This document shows, piece after piece, positions 2,105-18,292 of a stretch of 20,000 nucleotides of DNA. Position numbers and translations under genes: made by a program. Positions within the stretch are counted from its first letter, which is position 1. Every line of letters starts with the position of its first letter. The DNA lies in IMG/VR virus record IMGVR_UViG_3300027963_003549; one strand, given 5' to 3'. The notes beneath the pieces were generated by a model. The model was not told where the DNA came from, ran no database searches, and saw only the letters and a program-made list of their open reading frames with translations. Source of the stretch: an uncultured virus (IMG/VR IMGVR_UViG_3300027963_003549) (Duplodnaviria > Heunggongvirae > Uroviricota > Caudoviricetes).

Positions 2105-2131
2105 TTAAAGATTTTTTGAAATACTGATGAT
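2105..2131. repeat. 27-bp direct repeat, copy 1 (ttaaagattttttgaaatactgatgat)
   Basis: Identical to 3194..3220, the last 9 codons of the 84-aa ORF. Confidence 0.95.
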
Positions 2132-2167
2132 CAGGTTCATATCGGTGAGTTGAATAGTATTTTCCAT
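2105..2167 (-). pseudogene. 20-codon chimeric remnant MENTIQLTDMNLIISISKNL: probable host 2Fe-2S ferredoxin N-terminal stub fused to duplicated phage gene C-terminus
   Basis: ATG overlaps the reductase stop (TAATG); in frame with the duplicated IISISKNL*; MENTIQLT and TDMNL resemble two segments of Bacteroidota ferredoxin N-termini (recalled pattern M..I.I...DR.G..H...APTDM..NLME). Confidence 0.6.
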
Positions 2168-3180
2168 TAGAATCCGTTTACGCCGTTGACGGTGGTGTAT
2201 TTAAATTGAAGCTTGGCATCGGGGTAGATATGTTTGAAGGCACTTTGAACCATCAAAGTTCCTTCGTGAAAACCACAAAGGATGAGTTTTAGTTTTCCTG
2301 GATATTCATTGATGTCGCCGATGGCGTAAATTCCGGGAATGTTGGTGCTGTAATCAAAGGTATCTACGGCAATTCCGTTTTTGTCGAGGTTCAATCCCCA
2401 ATCAGCAATTGGTCCGAGTTTAGGAGATAACCCGAACAACGGTAAGTAATAATCGGTAAGATACGTGGTGGTTTCACCGTTGTTGAAGGTGATGACCACT
2501 TCTTCTAATTTTCCGTTACCATTGAGTGCGGTTACTTCGGCTTCGGTTACCAATTTGATTTTTCCTGCGTGAGCCAATTCGGTAACCTTTTCAGCGGAAT
2601 CGAGAGCACCACGGAAAGAAGAACGTCGATGTACTAGTACTACTTCCGCGGCAATATCGGCCAGAATGATAGACCAATCAAGGGCTGAATCACCACCACC
2701 AGCTACAACAATGCGTTGATTTCTAAATTTTTCTGGTTCTTTAATGATGTAATCCACCCCTTTGTTTTCGAAATTCGATAAGTTCTCGATGGGTGGCTTG
2801 CGGGGTTCAAAAACACCTAATCCCGCAGCAATGACCACGCAAGGAGCTCGGTGAATCGTACCACAAGTGGTGATGATTTCGAATTTTCCGTCTTCGGTTT
2901 GACGTATTTCTTCAGCTCGTTCACCCAAGGTAAACCCTGGTTTGAAAGGAGCAATTTGCTCCATCAGATTGTGGATGAGGTCTCCGGCCAAAACGGAAGG
3001 AAATCCAGGAATATCGTAGATGGGTTTTTTGGGATAAATTTCGGTGCATTGTCCTCCCGGTTGGGGAAGATAATCGATCAAATGACAACGAAGCTTGATC
3101 AATCCGGCTTCAAATACGGTGAAAAGACCAACGGGGCCTGCCCCAATGATCAATAAATCGGTTTCAATTGTGTGGTTCAC
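2167..3180 (-). CDS. Ferredoxin--NADP+ reductase, thioredoxin-reductase-like (YumC-type), Bacteroidota-like; auxiliary metabolic gene
   Basis: IIGAGPVG FAD motif, GGQC.EIYPKKPIYDIPGFP, GGGDSA NADP motif, HRR, GIYAIGD; no TrxB CxxC; GTG start; visibly more GC-rich, with many C/G-ending codons, than its neighbours. Confidence 0.92.
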   Translation of the reverse strand: MNHTIETDLLIIGAGPVGLFTVFEAGLIKLRCHLIDYLPQPGGQCTEIYPKKPIYDIPGFPSVLAGDLIHNLMEQIAPFKPGFTLGERAEEIRQTEDGKFEIITTCGTIHRAPCVVIAAGLGVFEPRKPPIENLSNFENKGVDYIIKEPEKFRNQRIVVAGGGDSALDWSIILADIAAEVVLVHRRSSFRGALDSAEKVTELAHAGKIKLVTEAEVTALNGNGKLEEVVITFNNGETTTYLTDYYLPLFGLSPKLGPIADWGLNLDKNGIAVDTFDYSTNIPGIYAIGDINEYPGKLKLILCGFHEGTLMVQSAFKHIYPDAKLQFKYTTVNGVNGF

Positions 3181-3193
3181 GTTTTATAAAGGA

Positions 3194-3220
3194 TTAAAGA
3201 TTTTTTGAAATACTGATGAT
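3194..3220. repeat. 27-bp direct repeat, copy 2
   Basis: Identical to 2105..2131; includes the stop codon of the 84-aa ORF. Confidence 0.95.
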
Positions 3221-3448
3221 TAGTTCCGTTTCTTCATTTGTCAATGTTAGATAGTTGGATTTAATCTTATCAATCGCTTCACTGAATTCTAAATAAAAAA
3301 GACCTCGAGGTTCTGATTGGGGATCTTTACCATTTTGTTTATTTTGCCAATCCAATAACAATTCCAACATTTCTTCTCGTTCAGAATCATCCATTTCACG
3401 AAAATACTCACTTGGATAAACATCAACTTCAGTAGTAAAGTAAGCCAT
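3194..3448 (-). CDS. Hypothetical acidic protein (84 aa)
   Basis: ORF 1 nt downstream of the previous stop; phage-like codon usage. Confidence 0.8.
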   Translation of the reverse strand: MAYFTTEVDVYPSEYFREMDDSEREEMLELLLDWQNKQNGKDPQSEPRGLFYLEFSEAIDKIKSNYLTLTNEETELIISISKNL

Positions 3449-3449
3449 A

Positions 3450-3671
3450 TTAGAACATATTATTTAAAAATTCTTCCTCAATTTCACTAATCGCAGCATT
3501 TTGATCAAAATCTTCAGGAACGTCATCCTCAAAATTTACTGAATCCACGACCCAATTATCCCAATCATTCCAATGTGCGTCAATAGAAATTTTGTAATCT
3601 TGGTATTCACCAAAGAATGTTTCATTTTTACTCGTTAATACCGAGTCATCATAGTTAATGTTTATGCTCAT
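3450..3671 (-). CDS. Hypothetical highly acidic protein (73 aa)
   Basis: ORF directly downstream of tRNA cluster on same strand; D/E-rich. Confidence 0.75.
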   Translation of the reverse strand: MSININYDDSVLTSKNETFFGEYQDYKISIDAHWNDWDNWVVDSVNFEDDVPEDFDQNAAISEIEEEFLNNMF

Positions 3672-3692
3672 AAAAAAATAATTTTAAGTTTG

Positions 3693-3778
3693 TACTAGAG
3701 GCCGGATTCGAACCAGCACGGATGCTACCATCCAAAGGGGCTTAAACCCTTCGTGTCTACCAATTTCACCACTCAAGC
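3693..3778 (-). tRNA. tRNA-Leu(UAA)
   Basis: GCTTGAG..CTCTAGT-A acceptor, TGGTGAAATTGGTAGACAC D-arm, AAGGG-TTTAAGC-CCCTT anticodon arm, long variable arm, GGTTCGAATCC; no encoded CCA. Confidence 0.93.
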
Positions 3779-3785
3779 ATTTTTG

Positions 3786-3858
3786 TGGGCCCTGTAGGAC
3801 TCGAACCTACGACTGTCACGTTATGAGCGTGATTTTCTACCTGCTGAAATAAGAACCC
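3786..3858 (-). tRNA. tRNA with CAU anticodon, most likely tRNA-Ile2 (lysidine type); elongator Met not excluded
   Basis: TCACG-CTCATAA-CGTGA anticodon arm; GGGTTCT/AGGGCCC-A acceptor; GTCGTAGGTTCGAGTCCTAC T-arm resembles bacterial Ile2; lacks initiator features (no C1 mismatch, no GGG/CCC anticodon stem). Confidence 0.85.
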
Positions 3859-3866
3859 TAAATTTG

Positions 3867-3939
3867 TTGGAACGATGGGAATCGAACCCATGACCTGATG
3901 TGTATAAGACATCTGCTCTAACCCCTGAGCTACGTTCCA
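3867..3939 (-). tRNA. tRNA-Ile(UAU)
   Basis: TGGAACG/CGTTCCA-A acceptor, TAGCTCAGGGGTTAGAGCA D-arm, GATGT-CTTATAC-ACATC anticodon arm, GGTTCGATTCC; no encoded CCA. Confidence 0.9.
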
Positions 3940-3988
3940 ATTAAAACCCCGTGTCGCGGGCTACGTAAACGCGGTCATCTCAAAATTT

Positions 3989-4063
3989 TGGTAGTCCCAC
4001 AGGGATTCGAACCCCAATTCTCGCATTAGAAGTGCGATGTCCTATCCATTGAACGATGGAACC
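3989..4063 (-). tRNA. tRNA-Arg(UCU)
   Basis: GGTTCCA/TGGGACT-ACCA acceptor, TCGCA-CTTCTAA-TGCGA anticodon arm, GGTTCGAATCC; CCA encoded. Confidence 0.95.
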
Positions 4064-4081
4064 ATTTCTTTAACAACGCTA

Positions 4082-4113
4082 CAAAGGTAGAAATAAATAT
4101 TCAATAAGTCAAA
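4082..4113 (-). promoter_or_regulatory. Bacteroidota primary-sigma promoter for tRNA cluster, with TATTTAT embedded in the spacer
   Basis: TTTG-N20-TACCTTTG, a perfect -33/-7 consensus; TATTTAT at 4093..4099. Confidence 0.85.
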
Positions 4114-4488
4114 TTATTTTGAAACAAAAACTCCTTTACCTAAAGTGTGCAATTTTTCAACCCGACTATTATCAGCAATTTCACCATCAATAACCCAATT
4201 TGGTTGTACTCTTGGGTTATACTTAACTTGTTGGATATTGTCCATGATTTTTGTTTCTGATAATACTGTAATCTCATCACACAAAATCCAAGCACATACT
4301 GTTTTATGAGATCCTTCAAAAATCTTTGTTGCCGTCTTTTTGTGGTTTTTGAGAACACATCCATTCATCACAAGTTGCACATCATCAGGACTGAGATATT
4401 CCACCATACCATTTGGGTGTTCAACCTTCCACTTCATAAAGTTCTTACCTGAACTTAAGTTAAATCGGACTTTGATGGTCTTTCTCAT
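4114..4488 (-). CDS. Hypothetical phage protein (124 aa)
   Basis: Start moved to ATG 4488, which forms an ATGA overlap with the upstream stop. Confidence 0.8.
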   Translation of the reverse strand: MRKTIKVRFNLSSGKNFMKWKVEHPNGMVEYLSPDDVQLVMNGCVLKNHKKTATKIFEGSHKTVCAWILCDEITVLSETKIMDNIQQVKYNPRVQPNWVIDGEIADNSRVEKLHTLGKGVFVSK

Positions 4489-5121: not shown

Positions 5122-5610
5122 ATGGAATCAGTACTAGTATTAAATGCGGACTTCACACCACTTAATGTCACTACCTTACAAAAAGGGGTGGGATTGGTAT
5201 TTCGTGGAAAAGCGGAAATCCTAAGAGAATCTACTGATCCTATTGTGTCAGGTTTCAAAAAATTTGCAAGACCTGTAATCATTCGTCTTCTGAGATACAT
5301 AAACTACAGAAAAGGATCAGTTAAGTTAAACAGAAAGAGATTGTTCAAAAGAGACAATAACTCTTGTGTCTATTGTGGTAATACTAAAAAACTTACGATT
5401 GATCATATCTTACCGAGAAGTAGAGGTGGAAAAAACTCTTGGGAGAATTTGGTAACCGCATGTCTTCCTTGTAACTTGAAGAAAGGTGATAAAACACCAG
5501 AAGAAGCCGGAATGAAAATGAAATCAAAACCATACACACCAAATGTTATTTCATCGGTTTTTAATTCAGAACTTACCGAGATTTATTTGGATTATATGAA
5601 ATCCTATTAA
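5122..5610 (+). CDS. HNH endonuclease (McrA-like family with VLVLNA N-terminus)
   Basis: VLVLNADFTPL...RDNNSCVYCG...LTIDHILPRSRGGKNSWENLVTACLPCNLKKGDKTPEEAGM. Confidence 0.93.
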   Translation: MESVLVLNADFTPLNVTTLQKGVGLVFRGKAEILRESTDPIVSGFKKFARPVIIRLLRYINYRKGSVKLNRKRLFKRDNNSCVYCGNTKKLTIDHILPRSRGGKNSWENLVTACLPCNLKKGDKTPEEAGMKMKSKPYTPNVISSVFNSELTEIYLDYMKSY

Positions 5611-5700: not shown

Positions 5701-6396
5701 TTAAGTTGTTACTTTTGTTTTTGCATTATCAATAACATCCTTTGTTTTGTTGGCAAACCCTTCAATTTTTGGACAAATGATTGTTGAGATTTTATTTTCT
5801 AAACCATCAACAAATCTACTATCTAATATTGCGGTGGATATTTGATTTCTTATCATATCAACAATACCACCACCCCACAAGTTATTAGTAAATGAACCAC
5901 CTGCGGTTTTTTGGTCTAACATCTTCTTGAAATACCCTTCAACGATTGAATCCGCTATTATGTTTGATAAAAAATTACAATCAGTTAACTTTGAAAATTC
6001 TCCTTTTCGTATAACATTACCTATACCAACAACTACGGTTTGTGCTAATAATGAATTTTTATATTCAGGTCCGAATAAACCTTCCATTAACCAAGAGGTA
6101 AATCTTTCACCTAAAAGTGCTGGAAACTCAGAAAAAAATCCACCAAAGATACCTAAGAAAGAATCTAATATACCTTCATTAATCACTGATTCAGTTAGAC
6201 CTTGGTCAATTAAACGACTACGTTCAACCATAAGTCTTTCGAACATTTTGTTAAATTCTTTTTGATTTGACATTGCGTTTTCATTAATTAATAACGAAAA
6301 TCTACTTTTAACAATTTTTGATTCAATCAACAAAGAATTTTTCTTGTTCTTAGCCCCTTTCAATGATTCGTGTAATTTATTTTTCAAAGTTTTCAT
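5701..6396 (-). CDS. Hypothetical protein (231 aa) with amphipathic/hydrophobic helices; probable virion protein
   Basis: Start moved to ATG 6396, 1 nt after upstream stop; LIE, INE, LTE, INE sites precede GILDSFLGIFGGFF. Confidence 0.8.
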   Translation of the reverse strand: MKTLKNKLHESLKGAKNKKNSLLIESKIVKSRFSLLINENAMSNQKEFNKMFERLMVERSRLIDQGLTESVINEGILDSFLGIFGGFFSEFPALLGERFTSWLMEGLFGPEYKNSLLAQTVVVGIGNVIRKGEFSKLTDCNFLSNIIADSIVEGYFKKMLDQKTAGGSFTNNLWGGGIVDMIRNQISTAILDSRFVDGLENKISTIICPKIEGFANKTKDVIDNAKTKVTT

Positions 6397-6397
6397 A

Positions 6398-8653
6398 TTA
6401 AAATCTATTGTCAGTTTGTTTAGGTTGTGCTGGTTTTGGTGATGTTGCCATATATTTTCCTGCGGCAGGTGATAACACAAATTGTAAATATGTGTTCGCC
6501 TTCCTCAAGTCATATCTAGTGTTACCTCTATTATCTTTAATATTCTTGTATTTTGAATCATCTAGACTTGTAATAACATCAGCTTCAAAACCTCTATCCG
6601 TAAGTCGTTTTAAGATATTTCTATTTTCATAATTACCTTCTCTCATACACTGAAGAACTGTTCTTTTTACCATATCAGTTCCAGGGATTATTGGATCAGT
6701 CGGTTCTGATGTTGTCGCGTAATGGTATAACAAGAATAAATCACCAAAACATCTTCCTAATGATTGTACTTGTGGTGAAATTCTTGTTTGTTTTCCACCT
6801 GAAACAACCGCAGATTCTCCACCCATTTTAAATAAATAAATTGTTTGTGGTTTTGTAACACCTAACGCTGATAAATCAATTGTTAATGGTGTGTAATATT
6901 GATCTGTTCCTTGAGGTGGGTTTTTAAACTGATTAAAATCATCCTCAACTCCTCGATTGTAATTATTGTAAGTATCTTTCCAATCTTGTGTTTGTGCATT
7001 CCAGTATGTATTTTTATTTTGTCCTAAAGTATCACCATATTTTTGAACTTCAGGGTTTGAACTTCCTTTGAAAAGTCGTGCTGCCATTTCAAAAACCTGA
7101 CCTCTATATCCTTGTCTAATGTAAGTTCTTAACTGATTATATAAATCCTCCAACTGACCAAGGTCACCAGGTTTTGATACATCAACACCTAATTTACCTG
7201 CCGCCTCAGAACCCGCAGATGTTTCGATTGTTGATATATTTGGACAATTAAGATTACGAGTGTATTTAAAAGATTTATCACCTGATTTTAATGTATAAAC
7301 CTTAAGATTACCATCAACAATTATATTATATTTAACGGTTTGGTCATAATCAGCACTTGTTGATTTGTAAGTAATAGCTTCATTCCCTGGAAATCCAGCT
7401 ACGGAGATATTTCTTAATATTGTTGCTTTACTTTTTATAGGATCTTTAATACAAAATTCCATAACATCATTCAAAGGATAGTTAGCTTGGATTGGTTTTG
7501 CAGAAACTGCTTGCTCAATCAAAACATTTCTAACAATTCTACGAATAGATTCAGGTAAATCTGTTGTTGGTATTCCTCCAGTATCTAAAGGTTCGTCTTT
7601 TTTAGGTTCTGTCTTTTTATTAGACTTCTCACATTCTTTACTTCCCCAAATACCTGTCATTTCTAATCCATAATTTTTTTGCCACTCCTTAACAGCGTCT
7701 GTAGTTTTACTACCAAACTTAGCATCAAGTACTAAGGTTTGCCACTCACCTCTATTTTGACTATTTAAATATTCTTGTAGTGTTCTAACCGATTCACCTT
7801 TCATACCTCTTTTAATATCCTTACCAACACAATATTCTGGTGCTGTCACATATGTTGTCTGATTTCGAGGTGGTGGTGGAGTATCAGGTGATACTGGTTC
7901 GGTTTGAGGTACGTCTGAAGGTAATGGAATATTCTCATCTTTCAAAAAGTACCATAGTGCTGCCGCAGTTATTCCAGTTGTTGCTGCCCATTTAAGAATT
8001 GATTTCCAATTCCAATTTTTATTTCTTAACAACCAAACCTTAATACTTTGTTTTTGAGAATCAGTAACCGTCTTTACAACTTTTCCACCTGTTTTGGCTG
8101 AAGTTTTAGCTGAAGTTTTAGTAGTCGTCTTTACTGTAGACCCTGTTGATTTTTCAATTGCTTTAATTTCTGCAGCAATATCTCTTGCGATATTATCTGA
8201 ATAACCTGCCTGTTTTAGTTTATTAATTATAACCGCAGAATCCTGACCCGCCATTCTACTTGCCTTACTAGCGGCAATCTCTTTAACTATATTACGTTCC
8301 AAACTTGGTGTAACTTTACCAGTATTCAATAAATTTTGAACAACTTTAGCTCCCTCAGCCCCTTTTAAAGTCTTACCAAATGATTTAACTAATGTTTCAG
8401 CATCTTTAATTACCGCACCACCCTTTAAAACCAATCCCGTATTCCCATAAACCTTTTTGAAAGCACTTGCAAGTTCTTTAGCATAGGCAGCAGCACTCTT
8501 CGTTCCTATTTTTAAGGATTGAAACTGTTCGTCTAATTCATTAACATCTAAGTTTTCAGTTATTGTTTTAGTCAGATCATAATTCATTAGATATGAAATC
8601 TTTTCTAAATTTTCTCTTAAATTTTCCATACTCATATTTTTTTTTACGGCCAT
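6398..8653 (-). CDS. Large multidomain protein: leader, Lys/Ala-rich helical region, TM helix, Pro-rich linker, peptidoglycan-binding domain (PG_binding_1-like), C-terminal unknown domain
   Basis: IKRGMKGESVRTLQEYLN...DAKFGSKTTDAVKEWQKNYGLEMTGIWG (about 7634..7816); WAATTGITAAALWYFL; start may be 8635. Confidence 0.8.
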   Translation of the reverse strand: MAVKKNMSMENLRENLEKISYLMNYDLTKTITENLDVNELDEQFQSLKIGTKSAAAYAKELASAFKKVYGNTGLVLKGGAVIKDAETLVKSFGKTLKGAEGAKVVQNLLNTGKVTPSLERNIVKEIAASKASRMAGQDSAVIINKLKQAGYSDNIARDIAAEIKAIEKSTGSTVKTTTKTSAKTSAKTGGKVVKTVTDSQKQSIKVWLLRNKNWNWKSILKWAATTGITAAALWYFLKDENIPLPSDVPQTEPVSPDTPPPPRNQTTYVTAPEYCVGKDIKRGMKGESVRTLQEYLNSQNRGEWQTLVLDAKFGSKTTDAVKEWQKNYGLEMTGIWGSKECEKSNKKTEPKKDEPLDTGGIPTTDLPESIRRIVRNVLIEQAVSAKPIQANYPLNDVMEFCIKDPIKSKATILRNISVAGFPGNEAITYKSTSADYDQTVKYNIIVDGNLKVYTLKSGDKSFKYTRNLNCPNISTIETSAGSEAAGKLGVDVSKPGDLGQLEDLYNQLRTYIRQGYRGQVFEMAARLFKGSSNPEVQKYGDTLGQNKNTYWNAQTQDWKDTYNNYNRGVEDDFNQFKNPPQGTDQYYTPLTIDLSALGVTKPQTIYLFKMGGESAVVSGGKQTRISPQVQSLGRCFGDLFLLYHYATTSEPTDPIIPGTDMVKRTVLQCMREGNYENRNILKRLTDRGFEADVITSLDDSKYKNIKDNRGNTRYDLRKANTYLQFVLSPAAGKYMATSPKPAQPKQTDNRF

Positions 8654-9774
8654 ACTAGATCCGCCGATTTTATTGCATTTAATATTTCTTGTTCTTGACT
8701 TTGATTACCCTTACCCATAAACTTCTCAACCCCCTTCTCAATCCCATAAACAAGACCTGTAGTTGTAGCTCCGGCTTTACCACCTTTTACTACTTTTTGT
8801 CCTGTTGTTAGTTTAGGAGCTAATTGAGCTTTACTTATACTACGATTTAGTAACCCATTCACACTATTAGATAATTTATTTACAAACCCTGAAACTTTAC
8901 CCAAAATTGATTTTATAAAATCTGCAGCCTTTGGGAATTTTTTTGATAAAAACGAAACAGCTTGATTCATTTTTCCTGAAACAGATCCTAAAGCACCCCC
9001 AATTTTTTGGATGATTGATTTTAATCCTGGTGTTTTTGCAACAATTTTAGCCATTTGTTGTGTTGTCTTAGCACCTCTTAATGACGTTGTAATTAATGTT
9101 TTTGCGGCTTTAGCAACACCACCGGCCAAAACTAATCCGAGAATATCGGTACCAAAAAATAATAATCTAATCCCTAGTGGTAAATCTTTGTCTTCGGTTT
9201 CGACCATACCTGTCAATTCTGCAACATCTAAAGCCACAATTATTGCCCAAGGGATCCATTGTACCGATTTACCAATTCCGGTGGCAACAAGAATCGCATC
9301 TAAAACCAAACCAACAGGGTGATACATCGCACTTCTAATACTTCTTGCGATATATAAAAGACCTTTACCAATAATACTGAAGGCTTTAGCGAAATCTCCT
9401 TGTGAAATGTTTTTCACAAAATCACCCATTCCCTTAGCTGATTTGTCAATAAACTCACCAACTCCTTTAATCGCTTCACTACCTTTTTGTTTTATCCATC
9501 CGATAGGATCGAATTCAAACTCTAACAATATGTTTTTAATATTTTTAGTACTCTCAGTTAATAACAAATTATTTAACTCAGACATACATTCACTAACAAC
9601 TTGTCTTGGAAGATCAGAAACACTATATGAATGTCTCAAAAAGAATACAAAATTATTGAAATCTTCCAATACATTACCAAGTTTCGTTTTGTTCTCAATA
9701 TCATATAATTCATCCATAAAGATGACGTATTTTTCATCAGGAGACAACCAATCTGAAATTAAGTAATTTTTCAT
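8644..9774 (-). CDS. 376-aa protein with several hydrophobic helices and Lys/Gly/Ala-rich amphipathic C-half; probable virion membrane-active protein
   Basis: PVGLVLDAILVATGIG..QWIPWAIIVALDVA, LLFFGTDILGLVLAGGVA; TAATG coupling to upstream gene. Confidence 0.8.
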   Translation of the reverse strand: MKNYLISDWLSPDEKYVIFMDELYDIENKTKLGNVLEDFNNFVFFLRHSYSVSDLPRQVVSECMSELNNLLLTESTKNIKNILLEFEFDPIGWIKQKGSEAIKGVGEFIDKSAKGMGDFVKNISQGDFAKAFSIIGKGLLYIARSIRSAMYHPVGLVLDAILVATGIGKSVQWIPWAIIVALDVAELTGMVETEDKDLPLGIRLLFFGTDILGLVLAGGVAKAAKTLITTSLRGAKTTQQMAKIVAKTPGLKSIIQKIGGALGSVSGKMNQAVSFLSKKFPKAADFIKSILGKVSGFVNKLSNSVNGLLNRSISKAQLAPKLTTGQKVVKGGKAGATTTGLVYGIEKGVEKFMGKGNQSQEQEILNAIKSADLVWP

Positions 9775-10280
9775 TAGAAACCGTATTTTACTTGTCCTTC
9801 TGGTTTTATTTCACACCACTTCTTATTGTTTTTTCCAGTACTAGCACAATAATTATCAATCAGTGTTTGTAATATTTTATTTAATGTGGCTCTTGATTTA
9901 GTCGCAAACCATTCCCCTTCCATAGCATCACCCAATGATTCACCATAAGACGATTTATATTTAGATGAAATAAGAATACTTCTTTCCAAGGTATTAAAAG
10001 CGTCAGTATTTGATATCGCATAATATAGTCCATCACCTGTACCCGCACCTGAAATCGCATCATTAATTGTTTGGACAATCTTATCAACATTTTTTGTGTT
10101 TGCCTTTGGTAACCCCATTAAATTAATAACCGCTTCGGGTTTGTATAGTACAACATCAGGTGTTAAAAATCTAAGCATTTTACTAGATTCATTGATGTTT
10201 TCGTTTAAAGTTTTATCTAACTTATAGTTCATCATCAACAACACTCTTTTTAGGGATTCCTGACCTTCATTTATATTCAT
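9774..10280 (-). CDS. 168-aa protein with leader and a single annexin-like repeat
   Basis: Start moved to ATG 10280 (after TATTTAT; avoids overlap); INDAISGAGTGD...KYKSSYGESLGDAMEGE resembles the annexin repeat L..A..G.GTDE...Y...YG..L...I..E. Confidence 0.65.
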   Translation of the reverse strand: MNINEGQESLKRVLLMMNYKLDKTLNENINESSKMLRFLTPDVVLYKPEAVINLMGLPKANTKNVDKIVQTINDAISGAGTGDGLYYAISNTDAFNTLERSILISSKYKSSYGESLGDAMEGEWFATKSRATLNKILQTLIDNYCASTGKNNKKWCEIKPEGQVKYGF

Positions 10281-10294
10281 AAACTTTTTTTTTA

Positions 10295-10316
10295 ATAAAT
10301 ATACTATATTATAGTA
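10295..10316 (-). promoter_or_regulatory. TATTTAT motif with adjacent palindrome TACTATA-N-TATAGTA
   Basis: Motif 10295..10301, 14 nt before ATG; palindrome 10302..10316. Confidence 0.55.
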
Positions 10317-13106: not shown

Positions 13107-13529
13107 ATGGATCTCATTTCGACGCACATTATTAAAAAACAAGACTTAGGTGTTCATGGAGCATTGTTCGGTGGTACTTTATTATCAATGATTGATGAAA
13201 GTGCTGCTGGGTATGCTATGCAACTATGTGACACACCAAGATTGGTTACTGTAAGTATTGATAAATGTTTCTTTGAAAGACCCGCAAAAGAAGGTCAATT
13301 ATTGAAAATATATGGATCACCTGTAAGACACGGAAGTAGTTCTATCACTCTATATTTGGAAGCTAGAAACCATAACGTATATACCGGAGAACAAAAGATT
13401 ATATTGAAAACAAATATAAAATTCGTTCGTATTGATGAAGAGGGTAATGCAATCCCATTAGGCGATAAAGCCAAAAATAGAATTTCCAAACTCATTGATG
13501 GTGAGAAGGTTGAAGATAAGGAAATTTAA
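13107..13529 (+). CDS. Acyl-CoA thioesterase, HotDog fold (YciA-like)
   Basis: DLGVHGALFGGTLLSMIDES...VTVSID...F.RP..G.L...G.SSIT...FVRIDEEGNAIP; weak host-type promoter TTTC-N19-TATTATTG ending 13101. Confidence 0.88.
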   Translation: MDLISTHIIKKQDLGVHGALFGGTLLSMIDESAAGYAMQLCDTPRLVTVSIDKCFFERPAKEGQLLKIYGSPVRHGSSSITLYLEARNHNVYTGEQKIILKTNIKFVRIDEEGNAIPLGDKAKNRISKLIDGEKVEDKEI

Positions 13530-15390: not shown

Positions 15391-16374
15391 ATGGGAAAAT
15401 TTAGAACATTATTAGATCAAAAAGATTACCTAAATGGGACTTTAGGTGATATGGTTAGAACACTTGATATTAGTGGTAAGTCAAAATATGTTGAAATGAT
15501 TGTTAAGCTTTTGGAATCAAAAAATAATGACAATTTGTTGAGTAACAATAATGAGTTATTGTTTGAAATTACTTCATTGTTATCAATACCTCAAGACCAC
15601 ATTATAAAACTTAAAAATGAAAATCCGATTTACTTATTTTTTATGTTACGTGGTATTGCAGAGCTTTTGGGATGGAGAGAGTCTAGAAACCTCATGAAAT
15701 TTATGGAATATTGTGAAAATAATAAAATTAAAACAGATATCTCCAAAATAACAACAATTGAAGATGTTATGTTCCACGTCAGTATTGCTAATCTTGAAAA
15801 AGAAGATAAAGAAATTATGGAATACGTTATTAAGGATTATGAAGATGATGAATGGTTAATTGTTAGACCTTTATCCCATTTGTCATCTAGGAAATATGGT
15901 GCGGGAACTAAGTGGTGTACAGCATCTGATCACGATTCATCCACATTCTATGATTACACACAATCAGGAACTCTAATATATACAATGAATAAAACTAAAA
16001 ACTTTAAGGTTGCTACCTACAAAAGAACTTATGATGGTGTATCTTTTTGGAATCAAGTTGATAGTAGAATTGATTCGTTAGAATCCGAGTTACCTCATGA
16101 AATTTTGTTTAAAATAAAAGAAATTATAAATAAAGGTGAAGTTAATTTTGTTTTATTAACTGAAGACCAAAAAGAAAAATTATCAGGTCGTCATTTAGAA
16201 TTAAAAAAGTCTTATACCGATTACGACCTTACTAATGAGGTGATGGATATAGCAGGACGACAGGAACCTCTGAGGGGTTATTTAACTATTCAAGACCCCC
16301 CAAATTTAATTGCTGCTGGTTCTATTTCGTATCCTACAGACCAAGAAGCTCCTGTTGAGGAAAGATCCATCTAA
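15391..16374 (+). CDS. 327-aa protein with PcfJ-like domain
   Basis: WLIVRPLSHLSSRKYGAGTKWCTAS...FYDY...GTLIY; paralogous domain to 439..2049. Confidence 0.8.
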   Translation: MGKFRTLLDQKDYLNGTLGDMVRTLDISGKSKYVEMIVKLLESKNNDNLLSNNNELLFEITSLLSIPQDHIIKLKNENPIYLFFMLRGIAELLGWRESRNLMKFMEYCENNKIKTDISKITTIEDVMFHVSIANLEKEDKEIMEYVIKDYEDDEWLIVRPLSHLSSRKYGAGTKWCTASDHDSSTFYDYTQSGTLIYTMNKTKNFKVATYKRTYDGVSFWNQVDSRIDSLESELPHEILFKIKEIINKGEVNFVLLTEDQKEKLSGRHLELKKSYTDYDLTNEVMDIAGRQEPLRGYLTIQDPPNLIAAGSISYPTDQEAPVEERSI

Positions 16375-16608
16375 TATCAATCTGTGAAATATATGATTGG
16401 GGATGTTCAACACATCCCCTTTTTTTAATGTAATAGGTAATGAATTATCCATTTGAAATTTCCAATCACCTGTTATGTCAAGTATTGTTACTTCACGATC
16501 TTCTTTATCTCTATGCCATTGAAATTCATCGGGATCTGAATCTGAAGTGAATGTTCTTATTTTGGTGTTTTCATCAATTTCTTGATCAACATATGGTTTC
16601 ATCATCAT
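16306..16608 (-). CDS. Small cupin-like protein (about 100 aa)
   Basis: WHRDKEDR...WKFQMDN.LP..LKKGD...IP...FHRLI cupin metal motifs. Confidence 0.8.
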   Translation of the reverse strand: MMMKPYVDQEIDENTKIRTFTSDSDPDEFQWHRDKEDREVTILDITGDWKFQMDNSLPITLKKGDVLNIPNHIFHRLILDGSFLNRSFLVCRIRNRTSSN

Positions 16609-16669
16609 TATCTTCCTATATATTTTCTACCTTATATGGGCTGTTTATGTTAAAGTAATTTTCTTTGAA

Positions 16670-17578
16670 TCATTTAAAAGAATAATTTTGAAAATTATTT
16701 GATTTTAAACGATACCTTATTAAACTTCTATCTATTTTTAATTCATTAGATGCTTCTGTTATGGAATTATATTCCACATCATCAATAATAATAGGTTTTT
16801 TATGTTTACAAATGTAATTTGGGTTATTTTTTCGTATTACACATTTTTTTGAACAATAAATTTCCGTTCTGTTCTTGTAAATAAACTCTTTCCCACAATT
16901 AATACAAACTTTATTTTTTTTGTTTTTTCGTTTAAAAAGGGCATCAACTCTATCATCGTCAAAAAATTTGTAAAATCCTTGGACATTACCAAAGTTCATA
17001 ATATTATTATTAGTCCTTATTGATTTAAACAATAATAATAGATCTTCAGATACTTCGTCAATCTCACAATTTTTCAATTTGTCTTTAATATAATAACATT
17101 TTTTTTCATATTTTTTCCAGTAATTATCCCAATACTCTTTTCTATTCTGTTTGGATTTATCACAATTCAACGACAAGTGTAATTTTGATTTTAATTTATC
17201 TTTATATATTTTAGATTTTTCTTCCCCATATACTTTTTCATATGTATATCCTTTTGTTTTGGAATTGTTTGATATTTTCAGTTTAATCTTATCAATATCA
17301 GGATGTTTTGACAACGTATCTCCACCATCACCCCCTTTAGTAATATTATATAATATATGATTTTTCTTATATTCTTCTATCCAATAAATTTCTTTTCTTG
17401 ATAATTCTTCATAATTATCGGTTCTATCTATGATTTTTTTTGTAAAATTATCTTTACCGTACTTTTTTATTGATCTTTTAATAAGGACACCAGACCCATA
17501 ATAAGAATCTCTTTCGGTAGTGTCTTTTCCAATGTAAATCTTACCATTCACAATATTTCTAATCTCATATATAACCAT
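16670..17578 (-). CDS. Free-standing GIY-YIG homing endonuclease (Seg-like) with Zn-finger and NUMOD1-like HTH C-terminus
   Basis: VIYEIRNIVNGKIYIGK...YYGSG...YG..NF...E..WI...YNITKGGDGG; CINCG..YCSKKC; YNSITEASNELKI; TACTTAT variant motif at 17595..17601. Confidence 0.9.
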   Translation of the reverse strand: MVIYEIRNIVNGKIYIGKDTTERDSYYGSGVLIKRSIKKYGKDNFTKKIIDRTDNYEELSRKEIYWIEEYKKNHILYNITKGGDGGDTLSKHPDIDKIKLKISNNSKTKGYTYEKVYGEEKSKIYKDKLKSKLHLSLNCDKSKQNRKEYWDNYWKKYEKKCYYIKDKLKNCEIDEVSEDLLLLFKSIRTNNNIMNFGNVQGFYKFFDDDRVDALFKRKNKKNKVCINCGKEFIYKNRTEIYCSKKCVIRKNNPNYICKHKKPIIIDDVEYNSITEASNELKIDRSLIRYRLKSNNFQNYSFK

Positions 17579-17641
17579 ACAATAATCTTTACATATAAGT
17601 ATTATGAAATAAAAATTTTACCTGTAAACAAATGTGTATTT

Positions 17642-18265
17642 TTACCAGTACCCTGAATATGTACGATTTCCCCAAAGGTGAGCATATCGGTTAATTCTAC
17701 ACGCCCAGTACCCCGCCTTTGTTTTATCCTTCTTATCTTTACATTTATGTCTTGCAGCAAAACTTCTTCTTGCTTCAGGATTTGATACTTTCGCTGTTAA
17801 ACCACCATGAACATCACCGAAACTTATCTTTTTAACACGACCTGAGTTACCTTTAACATAAACGTAGTATTTCTTTTTACCACCTGACGCTCTCATCGGG
17901 TAATTTAATTTTACGGTTTTTCCAGCATATTCCGCTTCATTGATCATTTCATCTTCATCCAAAAACGGAACGTCCAAAAATACAACATCACCATCTTCGT
18001 TAATTGCTGTCTTTCCAATATCCATAGAAACAATCCACCTATCAAAACCTTCAAGTTGTAATTTACCTTCATTATATAGATCTCTAGCTTCGTTAATCAA
18101 ATTAAAAAATTCATCAGAATATGGTCTAAAAATTTGATTTTGTAATCTAATACCTTCGTTTAAGTGGTATTTCATATTTTCTGAGATAATAACTTGTTCA
18201 GTTAAAATCATTTTCTTATTAGTATCTTCTTTTAACACTTTTTTAATAAGATCCTTCATAGACAT
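17642..18265 (-). CDS. Conserved large-phage hypothetical protein (207 aa) with basic C-terminal R.SF.ARH.C...AGYW.C domain
   Basis: Start moved to ATG 18265 (8 nt after TATTTAT 18274..18280); EAEYAGKTVKLNYPMR...KISFG...RRSFAARHKC...KAGYWAC. Confidence 0.8.
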   Translation of the reverse strand: MSMKDLIKKVLKEDTNKKMILTEQVIISENMKYHLNEGIRLQNQIFRPYSDEFFNLINEARDLYNEGKLQLEGFDRWIVSMDIGKTAINEDGDVVFLDVPFLDEDEMINEAEYAGKTVKLNYPMRASGGKKKYYVYVKGNSGRVKKISFGDVHGGLTAKVSNPEARRSFAARHKCKDKKDKTKAGYWACRINRYAHLWGNRTYSGYW

Positions 18266-18292
18266 TTTTTTTAATAAATATACCGGTAATTG

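Follow-up and report, generated by a model that had tools for sequence, protein, structure and literature searches.

The question raised by this locus is how a ferredoxin-NADP+ reductase gene came to lie between two copies of the end of a phage gene. The window (the whole 20,000-nt stretch of uncultured-virus DNA analysed here) contains two identical 27-bp copies in direct orientation, at 2105-2131 and 3194-3220 (window sequence comparison), which can be extended to 30 bp with a single mismatch (C at 2132 vs T at 3221). This pair is the longest exact direct repeat of the window, and a repeat of 27 nt was not attained in any of 200 order-3 Markov simulations, whose longest repeats were 14-20 nt. 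The insert between the copies (2132-3193; 1062 bp) has a GC content of 0.441, compared with 0.314 in the remainder of the window, and consists, on the minus strand, of a 13-nt leader (3181-3193), a coding sequence of 337 aa (2167-3180) and a 35-nt tail (2132-2166), an anatomy that the original prediction had described and that the sequence check confirmed.

All features of the surrounding unit are on the minus strand. The upstream copy (3194-3220) is the coding 3′ end of an intact 84-aa phage gene with no assigned function (3194-3448; cluster of 29 members), which is preceded by a 73-aa phage gene, also without assigned function (3450-3671), and by four tRNA genes called by ARAGORN (Arg, Ile, Met, and Leu; 3692-4063). 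The downstream copy (2105-2131; 30 bp with one mismatch when 2132-2134 are included) repeats the 3′ end of the 84-aa gene, and an intrinsic-terminator-like hairpin found by the terminator scan (2077-2099) closes the unit. On the 3′ side of this terminator is a 536-aa phage gene (439-2049), a flank common to empty and filled alleles of the site. The ends of the insert are not inverted repeats (end comparison), and neither a transposase nor an integrase was identified among 15 window ORFs scanned against Pfam (15 of 59 listed, most of the remainder being overlapping shadows), in agreement with the prediction; the insert is thus not an insertion sequence or transposon cassette, which would have both terminal inverted repeats and a transposase. 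No recombinase was seen in the window.

The setting is that of a large freshwater phage: in addition to the four tRNAs, the window encodes HNH (5122-5610; Pfam) and homing-type endonucleases and a peptidoglycan-binding protein, its IMG/VR relatives are 92-100% identical, and its proteins are matched on contigs of up to 130,734 bp. Several further features of this genome were observed. The proteins at 439-2049 and 15391-16374 are paralogs that share a domain (phrog_17056, phrog_28193), with 90 nt of inverted DNA similarity. A hot-dog-fold thioesterase gene (Pfam 4HBT; 13107-13529) has a phage-like GC3 of 0.24 and is perhaps an older host-derived gene. An exact 19-nt AT-rich repeat ahead of genes (10286-10304 and 18265-18283) is probably a phage promoter motif. 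The first tRNA gene (3989-4063) differs around the anticodon arm from its counterpart in the phage relative L001 (4390-4460), with variants there in metagenome runs X2 and X5, and tRNA swapping is a possible cause.

The best solved match of the 337-aa protein is the ferredoxin-NADP+ reductase of Rhodopseudomonas palustris (PDB 5YGQ; E 3.6e-107, residues 1-331). Two glycine-rich motifs, which we take to be dinucleotide-binding, and an HRR motif, presumably for NADPH, are at positions 13, 161, and 184. The intact protein contains no CxxC motif; the redox CxxC is absent from ferredoxin-NADP+ reductases of the thioredoxin reductase (TrxR) fold, according to the available portion of PMC10294844. 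Tyr328 (FAD re-face stacking) and Asp56 align with the same positions of 5YGQ, their roles being taken from the accessible text of PMC9137726. Based on these residues, the protein is assigned to the Tyr-stacking cluster of TrxR-fold ferredoxin-NADP+ reductases. Thioredoxin reductase, the label that homologs carry at JGI, was rejected, given the missing CxxC and a TIGR01292 score of 132 bits vs a cut-off of 343.

The phage enzyme would most likely shuttle electrons between NADPH and ferredoxin, and the host's own ferredoxin would serve as partner during infection; the donor reductase gene overlaps a 2Fe-2S ferredoxin gene, which provides context for this pairing. Such reductase–ferredoxin pairs feed radical-SAM, Fe-S, and ribonucleotide-reductase chemistry. 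Regarding expression, a Bacteroidota-type -33/-7 promoter motif (consensus as given in the available part of PMC6847099) is located at 4113-4082, 19 nt before tRNA-Arg; the window contains three matches vs 0.86 expected, and 13 of 200 shuffles reach three. The terminator scan found no terminator-like site on the minus strand from the tRNAs to the beginning of the reductase gene, within which a single weak hairpin is present, and the motif scan found no promoter motif within the insert. These features are consistent with the proposal that the gene was placed last in a probable tRNA transcription unit, with which it would be co-transcribed. Folding of the start region is slightly weaker (-1.9 vs -5.2 kcal/mol), a difference too slight to carry weight.

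The junctions were read in assembled contigs, rather than reads, of 4 of the 20 metagenome runs that hold the sequence (X1, X2, X4, and X5), and runs of three studies bridge them. None of the 20 runs, which came from a search for DNA, is recorded as an RNA run. In X1, possibly the source run of the window, two contigs with zero differing letters span both joints at even depth (13.2 and 15.6), and X4, from another study and year, spans both joints with variant letters; insert depth equals flank depth in both runs. X5 spans the 2131/2132 joint, and X2 spans the 3193/3194 joint, with a filled allele covering 3013-3272. X2 also contains the empty site that had been predicted, in a contig that joins 2132 to 3222, the depths of empty and filled alleles being similar and low (3.4 and about 4). 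X4 shares the joints of the window without an extra gap in the insert; its nine gap letters are all within the flank, and the scar that the window shows at the insert's 3′ end is therefore present in X4 as well. A deletion at about 2411-2612 in X2 and X5 was considered, where cover is absent, yet no contig joins across, and it was not read as a deletion.

The host origin that had been proposed is borne out by a Bacteroidota donor. Among 80 loci kept from the genome collection, those of two freshwater Bacteroidota MAGs encode proteins with 97% and 95% amino-acid identity to the phage reductase, vs 64-75% for the other 78, and the alleles of the donor lineage are 92-93% identical to the insert at the DNA level. 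Further alleles in like bacterial context come from genome G004 and from three metagenome loci, which represent two distinct alleles, giving a set of five distinct bacterial alleles. Each of the five has a gene for a 106-aa 2Fe-2S ferredoxin whose start is overlapped by the reductase stop. The tail of the insert (2132-2166) corresponds to the 5′ end of this ferredoxin gene: it begins with roughly eight codons, lacks the next 45 nt, a deletion flanked by short repeats (scar at approximately 2143-2147), and resumes for four more codons. The tail fits best with this 45-nt skip in all five alleles (2-4 mismatches vs 6-9 without it). The sequence comparisons thus place the donor in a freshwater Bacteroidota group, and this lineage is likely to be the phage host. 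No spacer-like match was detected to the window in G002 and G003 (incomplete genomes) or to 3194-4130 in G002-G004 (three incomplete genomes). The phage gene is nested among host alleles and lies in phage context, and it is therefore a host-derived auxiliary metabolic gene.

Short microhomology, picked out after the data had been seen and read against relatives of the donor rather than the donor itself, is present at all three joints of the captured piece. A word of 7-10 nt is common to the end of the phage gene and the donor leader at the 5′ joint; of this leader a 13-nt remnant with the A at -3 is kept (3181-3193). Among random phage 20-mers, 0.06-2.8% do equally well, and the proportion is 0.4-4% when the entire intergenic region is aligned more loosely. 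In the final register at this joint both similar words are retained in tandem, with a 2-nt overlap. The 45-nt deletion is bounded by a repeat of 4-5 nt, and at the 3′ joint the tail runs with a 4-nt overlap into the downstream phage copy. There the ferredoxin stub stays in frame as it passes into the duplicated end of the phage gene, forming a chimeric mini-ORF of 20 codons (2105-2167), probably a by-product; its frame was set aside as evidence, given a chance of about one in three.

The microhomology at these joints, together with the deleted ferredoxin stub, favors annealing or template switching. We propose a single event, in which a piece of a host reductase–ferredoxin operon would have entered the phage by microhomology-guided illegitimate recombination, a route of phage gene acquisition described in the accessible parts of PMC8136500 and PMC3945230. 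The phage strand would exit where the 84-aa gene has its stop codon, traverse the donor's gene for the reductase as far as the beginning of that for ferredoxin, and rejoin phage DNA 27-30 bp upstream of its exit, which would generate the duplication; the 45-nt deletion could have occurred at capture or later. The 84-aa gene would thereby stay intact, and the reductase would become the last gene before the terminator of a tRNA unit presumably driven by a host-type promoter. Afterward, purifying selection would keep the gene as it drifted toward AT, and ordinary homologous recombination in the flanks would transfer it between phage backgrounds, leaving a present/absent polymorphism. As a whole, this sequence of capture, selection, AT drift, and spread is the explanation that we consider probable.

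The site exists in three states: empty, with the reductase, or with a phage gene between duplicated terminators. The last is found in L001, which has no reductase and in which a 147-aa phage gene (GC3 0.23; own AT-rich leader; cluster of four proteins, no PHROG) lies between exact 26-bp copies of the terminator (L001 5256-5815). In this relative the 84-aa gene is directly ahead of the terminator, the arrangement that removal of the insert was expected to restore. A 22-nt terminator hairpin identical in sequence was also observed in an otherwise dissimilar, unrelated viral contig (L083 3001-3022). In X4, the downstream copy carries two L001-type letters and one other, and 12 of 20 flank letters among those listed equal those of L001, a pattern suggestive of recombination with a different allele within that copy or close to it.

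As to the proposed consequences of the repeats, the letters of the empty allele in X2 match neither window copy, and this allele may therefore be something other than a precise excision. Neither amplification nor a backward joint indicative of a mini-circle was seen in any of the four runs examined, in contigs, which drop rare forms. The suggested search for other host-like genes flanked by duplications covered the window and a 23.7-kb relative (G005): the only other exact repeats of at least 16 nt are the 19-nt AT-rich motif in the window, and the 26-bp terminator pair and one 16-mer in G005.

The phage reductase is strongly ameliorated, is under purifying selection, and has diversified among phage alleles. 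It differs from the five bacterial alleles at 74-130 letters, vs 15-32 among the four closest bacterial alleles. At sites where all five bacterial alleles agree, the phage copy shows 30 GC-to-AT changes vs 2 in reverse, and the identical polarisation for bacterial allele L002 gives 10 and 12. The GC3 of the phage copy (0.42) lies between those of the five bacterial alleles (0.53-0.57) and of 20 phage ORFs (0.18-0.40), and its branch is 0.084 long vs 0.004-0.011 in the four close alleles, among which the tree does not settle its placement (relative-rate test 44 vs 18, p 0.001; range p 0.001-0.014). Changes specific to the phage copy comprise 34 synonymous and 9-10 replacement changes, with a dN/dS of 0.037 vs L002. 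At fourfold sites 17 of 59 G/C and 0 of 32 A/T changed; under this measured bias, a 27-mer with five G/C would stay unchanged with a probability of 0.15-0.18, and the exactness of the repeat therefore does not date the insertion.

Change also continued inside phages, given that the X4 allele differs from the window at 11 reductase sites among those listed, and at 9 (L002) or 10 (L175) of these it has the bacterial letter. A host-derived conversion tract is a possible but tentative reading of six consecutive bacterial-type letters in X4 (2680-2710); the neighboring diagnostic sites 2632, 2638, 2641, and 2671 are not among the listed changes. Three database proteins (P0001-P0003) form a clade with the window protein (support 99/96); they are on contigs (4129, 2790) equal in size to those of relatives of the 84-aa gene, a pairing that correctly links the two known L001 proteins, and we infer that they belong to phage genomes. 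Another protein, P0121, starts like the phage type but ends in a C-terminal portion derived from a reductase that is more distant, and is either a recombinant or an assembly chimera. Because the branch of the phage copy falls within the alleles of a single living lineage, the capture is recent on the timescale of the host; for the phage it is old. The original prediction of a recent snapshot is not supported on the phage timescale, in view of the 30 vs 2 bias, purifying selection, and divergent phage alleles, with which the exact repeat is compatible.

Other explanations of the locus have to be weighed against a single microhomology-guided capture. That the assembly joined phage and host contigs has a practically negligible probability: the sequence is of metagenomic origin, and a related reductase sequence in X1 does break contigs at 3011-3040, but the joints are bridged in three studies (both in X1 and X4, 3193/3194 in X2, 2131/2132 in X5), insert and flank depths agree in X1 and X4, and the phage gene is at least 74 letters from every host allele. 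As far as contigs allow, such a chimera is refuted. A true target-site duplication by a staggered cut (from a phage nuclease or hairpin-directed nicks), or a circle carrying a 27-30-bp piece and entering by single crossover, would make the terminator region a dedicated capture site, which we regard as unlikely. Two independent insertions a few bases apart, with repeats of 27-30 bp and 26 bp, and the HNH gene at 5122-5610 agree with such a site, as do the mini-circles between short repeats shown for T4-type phages and a Red-beta pairing minimum of 23-27 bp, in the portions of PMC2839356 and PMC3945230 available. Yet the sequences duplicated by the two insertions are not the same, the same two illegitimate joints would be needed before a circle could form, and microhomology at every joint requires no special enzyme. 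Moreover, two other indels between the window and G005 have no exact window repeat of at least 16 nt: one is a homing-endonuclease-like gene (16670-17578) missing from G005, which joins approximately 16602 to 17670 (indel at ~16.6-17.7 kb); the other is a hypervariable block (5.7-10.3 kb; window 5701-10300 vs L183 41-6517) in which large unknown genes are swapped for distantly similar ones in G005. Of the predicted acquisition by staggered break or circle, then, insertion with duplication stands, and the mechanism is better accounted for by annealing or template switching at the three joints. It is also conceivable, and put forward tentatively, that large freshwater phages share a recurring capture route, in which foreign genes would enter at gene ends beside terminator hairpins with duplications of 18-30 bp, forming exchangeable cassette slots; the duplicated piece might act as an exchange handle, because the downstream copy in X4 looks swapped.

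The remaining alternatives concern age and function. A capture that took place recently, from a sister of the donor that is unsampled and lower in GC, with the exact repeat as the sign of a fresh event, would fit the unbroken 27-bp identity, the small number of distinct bacterial alleles seen (five), and a GC3 still well above that of most phage genes; it is rendered very unlikely by the uniformly higher GC3 of those five alleles, by the change within phages apparent from X4, and by the probability of repeat exactness under the measured bias. It is highly improbable that the gene is a neutral passenger being lost: it is polymorphic, with empty and filled alleles at similar depth in X2, and carries nine or ten amino-acid replacements seen in the phage copy alone, but its frame is open after approximately 44 lineage-specific changes (34 synonymous), the FAD, NADPH, Asp56, and Tyr328 positions are intact, and four full-length phage-type proteins exist.

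The insert therefore represents a known type, a host-derived metabolic gene, here probably acquired by illegitimate recombination, with an unusually complete record. Phage uptake of host genes is usually inferred long after its traces have gone; here the donor lineage, three joints, empty site, alternative cassette, and phage alleles are readable, such that the joining mechanism and the pace of amelioration are testable at one locus. A caution also follows from the locus: where a genome has a GC-to-AT bias, the exactness of AT-rich flanking repeats gives no date for the insertion. In addition, a large uncultured phage gains a likely host lineage, and ferredoxin-NADP+ reductase joins the metabolic genes carried by phages of Bacteroidota.

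Searches for similar cases gave no reductase relative in viral_contigs (0 of 6 candidate stretches), 57 protein records in INPHARED, all below 60% identity (best 41%), and only tRNA matches in the INPHARED DNA search; further viral scans returned only G005 and L083, the latter with the terminator in common. The literature covered, outside of which lie most subscription journals, held no report of such a capture. A moron is an inserted gene with its own promoter and terminator; the reductase, with a 13-nt leader, no promoter motif in the insert, and the terminator of the phage, is not a moron. Work by Morris and colleagues in 2008, cited in PMC8136500, reportedly described host DNA being captured through illegitimate recombination in mycobacteriophage Giles, which is similar in that host DNA resides in a phage without a transposase or integrase; the present locus differs in its 27-30-bp duplication and in the measurable selection on a whole gene.

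Among other systems, ORF48 of the jumbo cyanophage PhiMa05 is annotated as a ferredoxin-NADP reductase, but the host there is a cyanobacterium, the best PhiMa05-like record is 26% identical, and the accessible text describes no capture anatomy (PMC8093824). The R. palustris enzyme 5YGQ resembles the phage protein in the lack of CxxC and in the placement of Tyr328 and Asp56, as far as described in the available parts of its sources (PMC9137726, PMC10294844); the present enzyme is phage-encoded and known from its sequence. In the PeSL cassettes and mini-circles of T4-type phages RB49 and phi1, as presented in the portion of PMC2839356 available, variable regions acquire or lose genes that lie between short direct repeats. 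The site described here likewise has short direct repeats at a variable position, and the L001 allele with its duplicated terminators is much alike; the reductase, however, is flanked by coding sequence, lacks its own promoter, and is host-derived, and with a single terminator in the window and no repeated promoter-stem-loop it is not a PeSL cassette. The closest parallel in kind is found in cyanophage psbA and psbD, host-derived metabolic genes for which the available text of PMC1484495 gives few acquisitions, an intermediate GC content read as amelioration or recombination, and later spread in the gene pool. The reductase shares with them a whole host gene, few acquisitions, intermediate GC, and spread in the phage gene pool, and differs in that the joints of the capture, the stub left by the adjoining host gene, and the empty site are all visible, the likely host is a heterotrophic Bacteroidota, and the gene encodes a redox enzyme.
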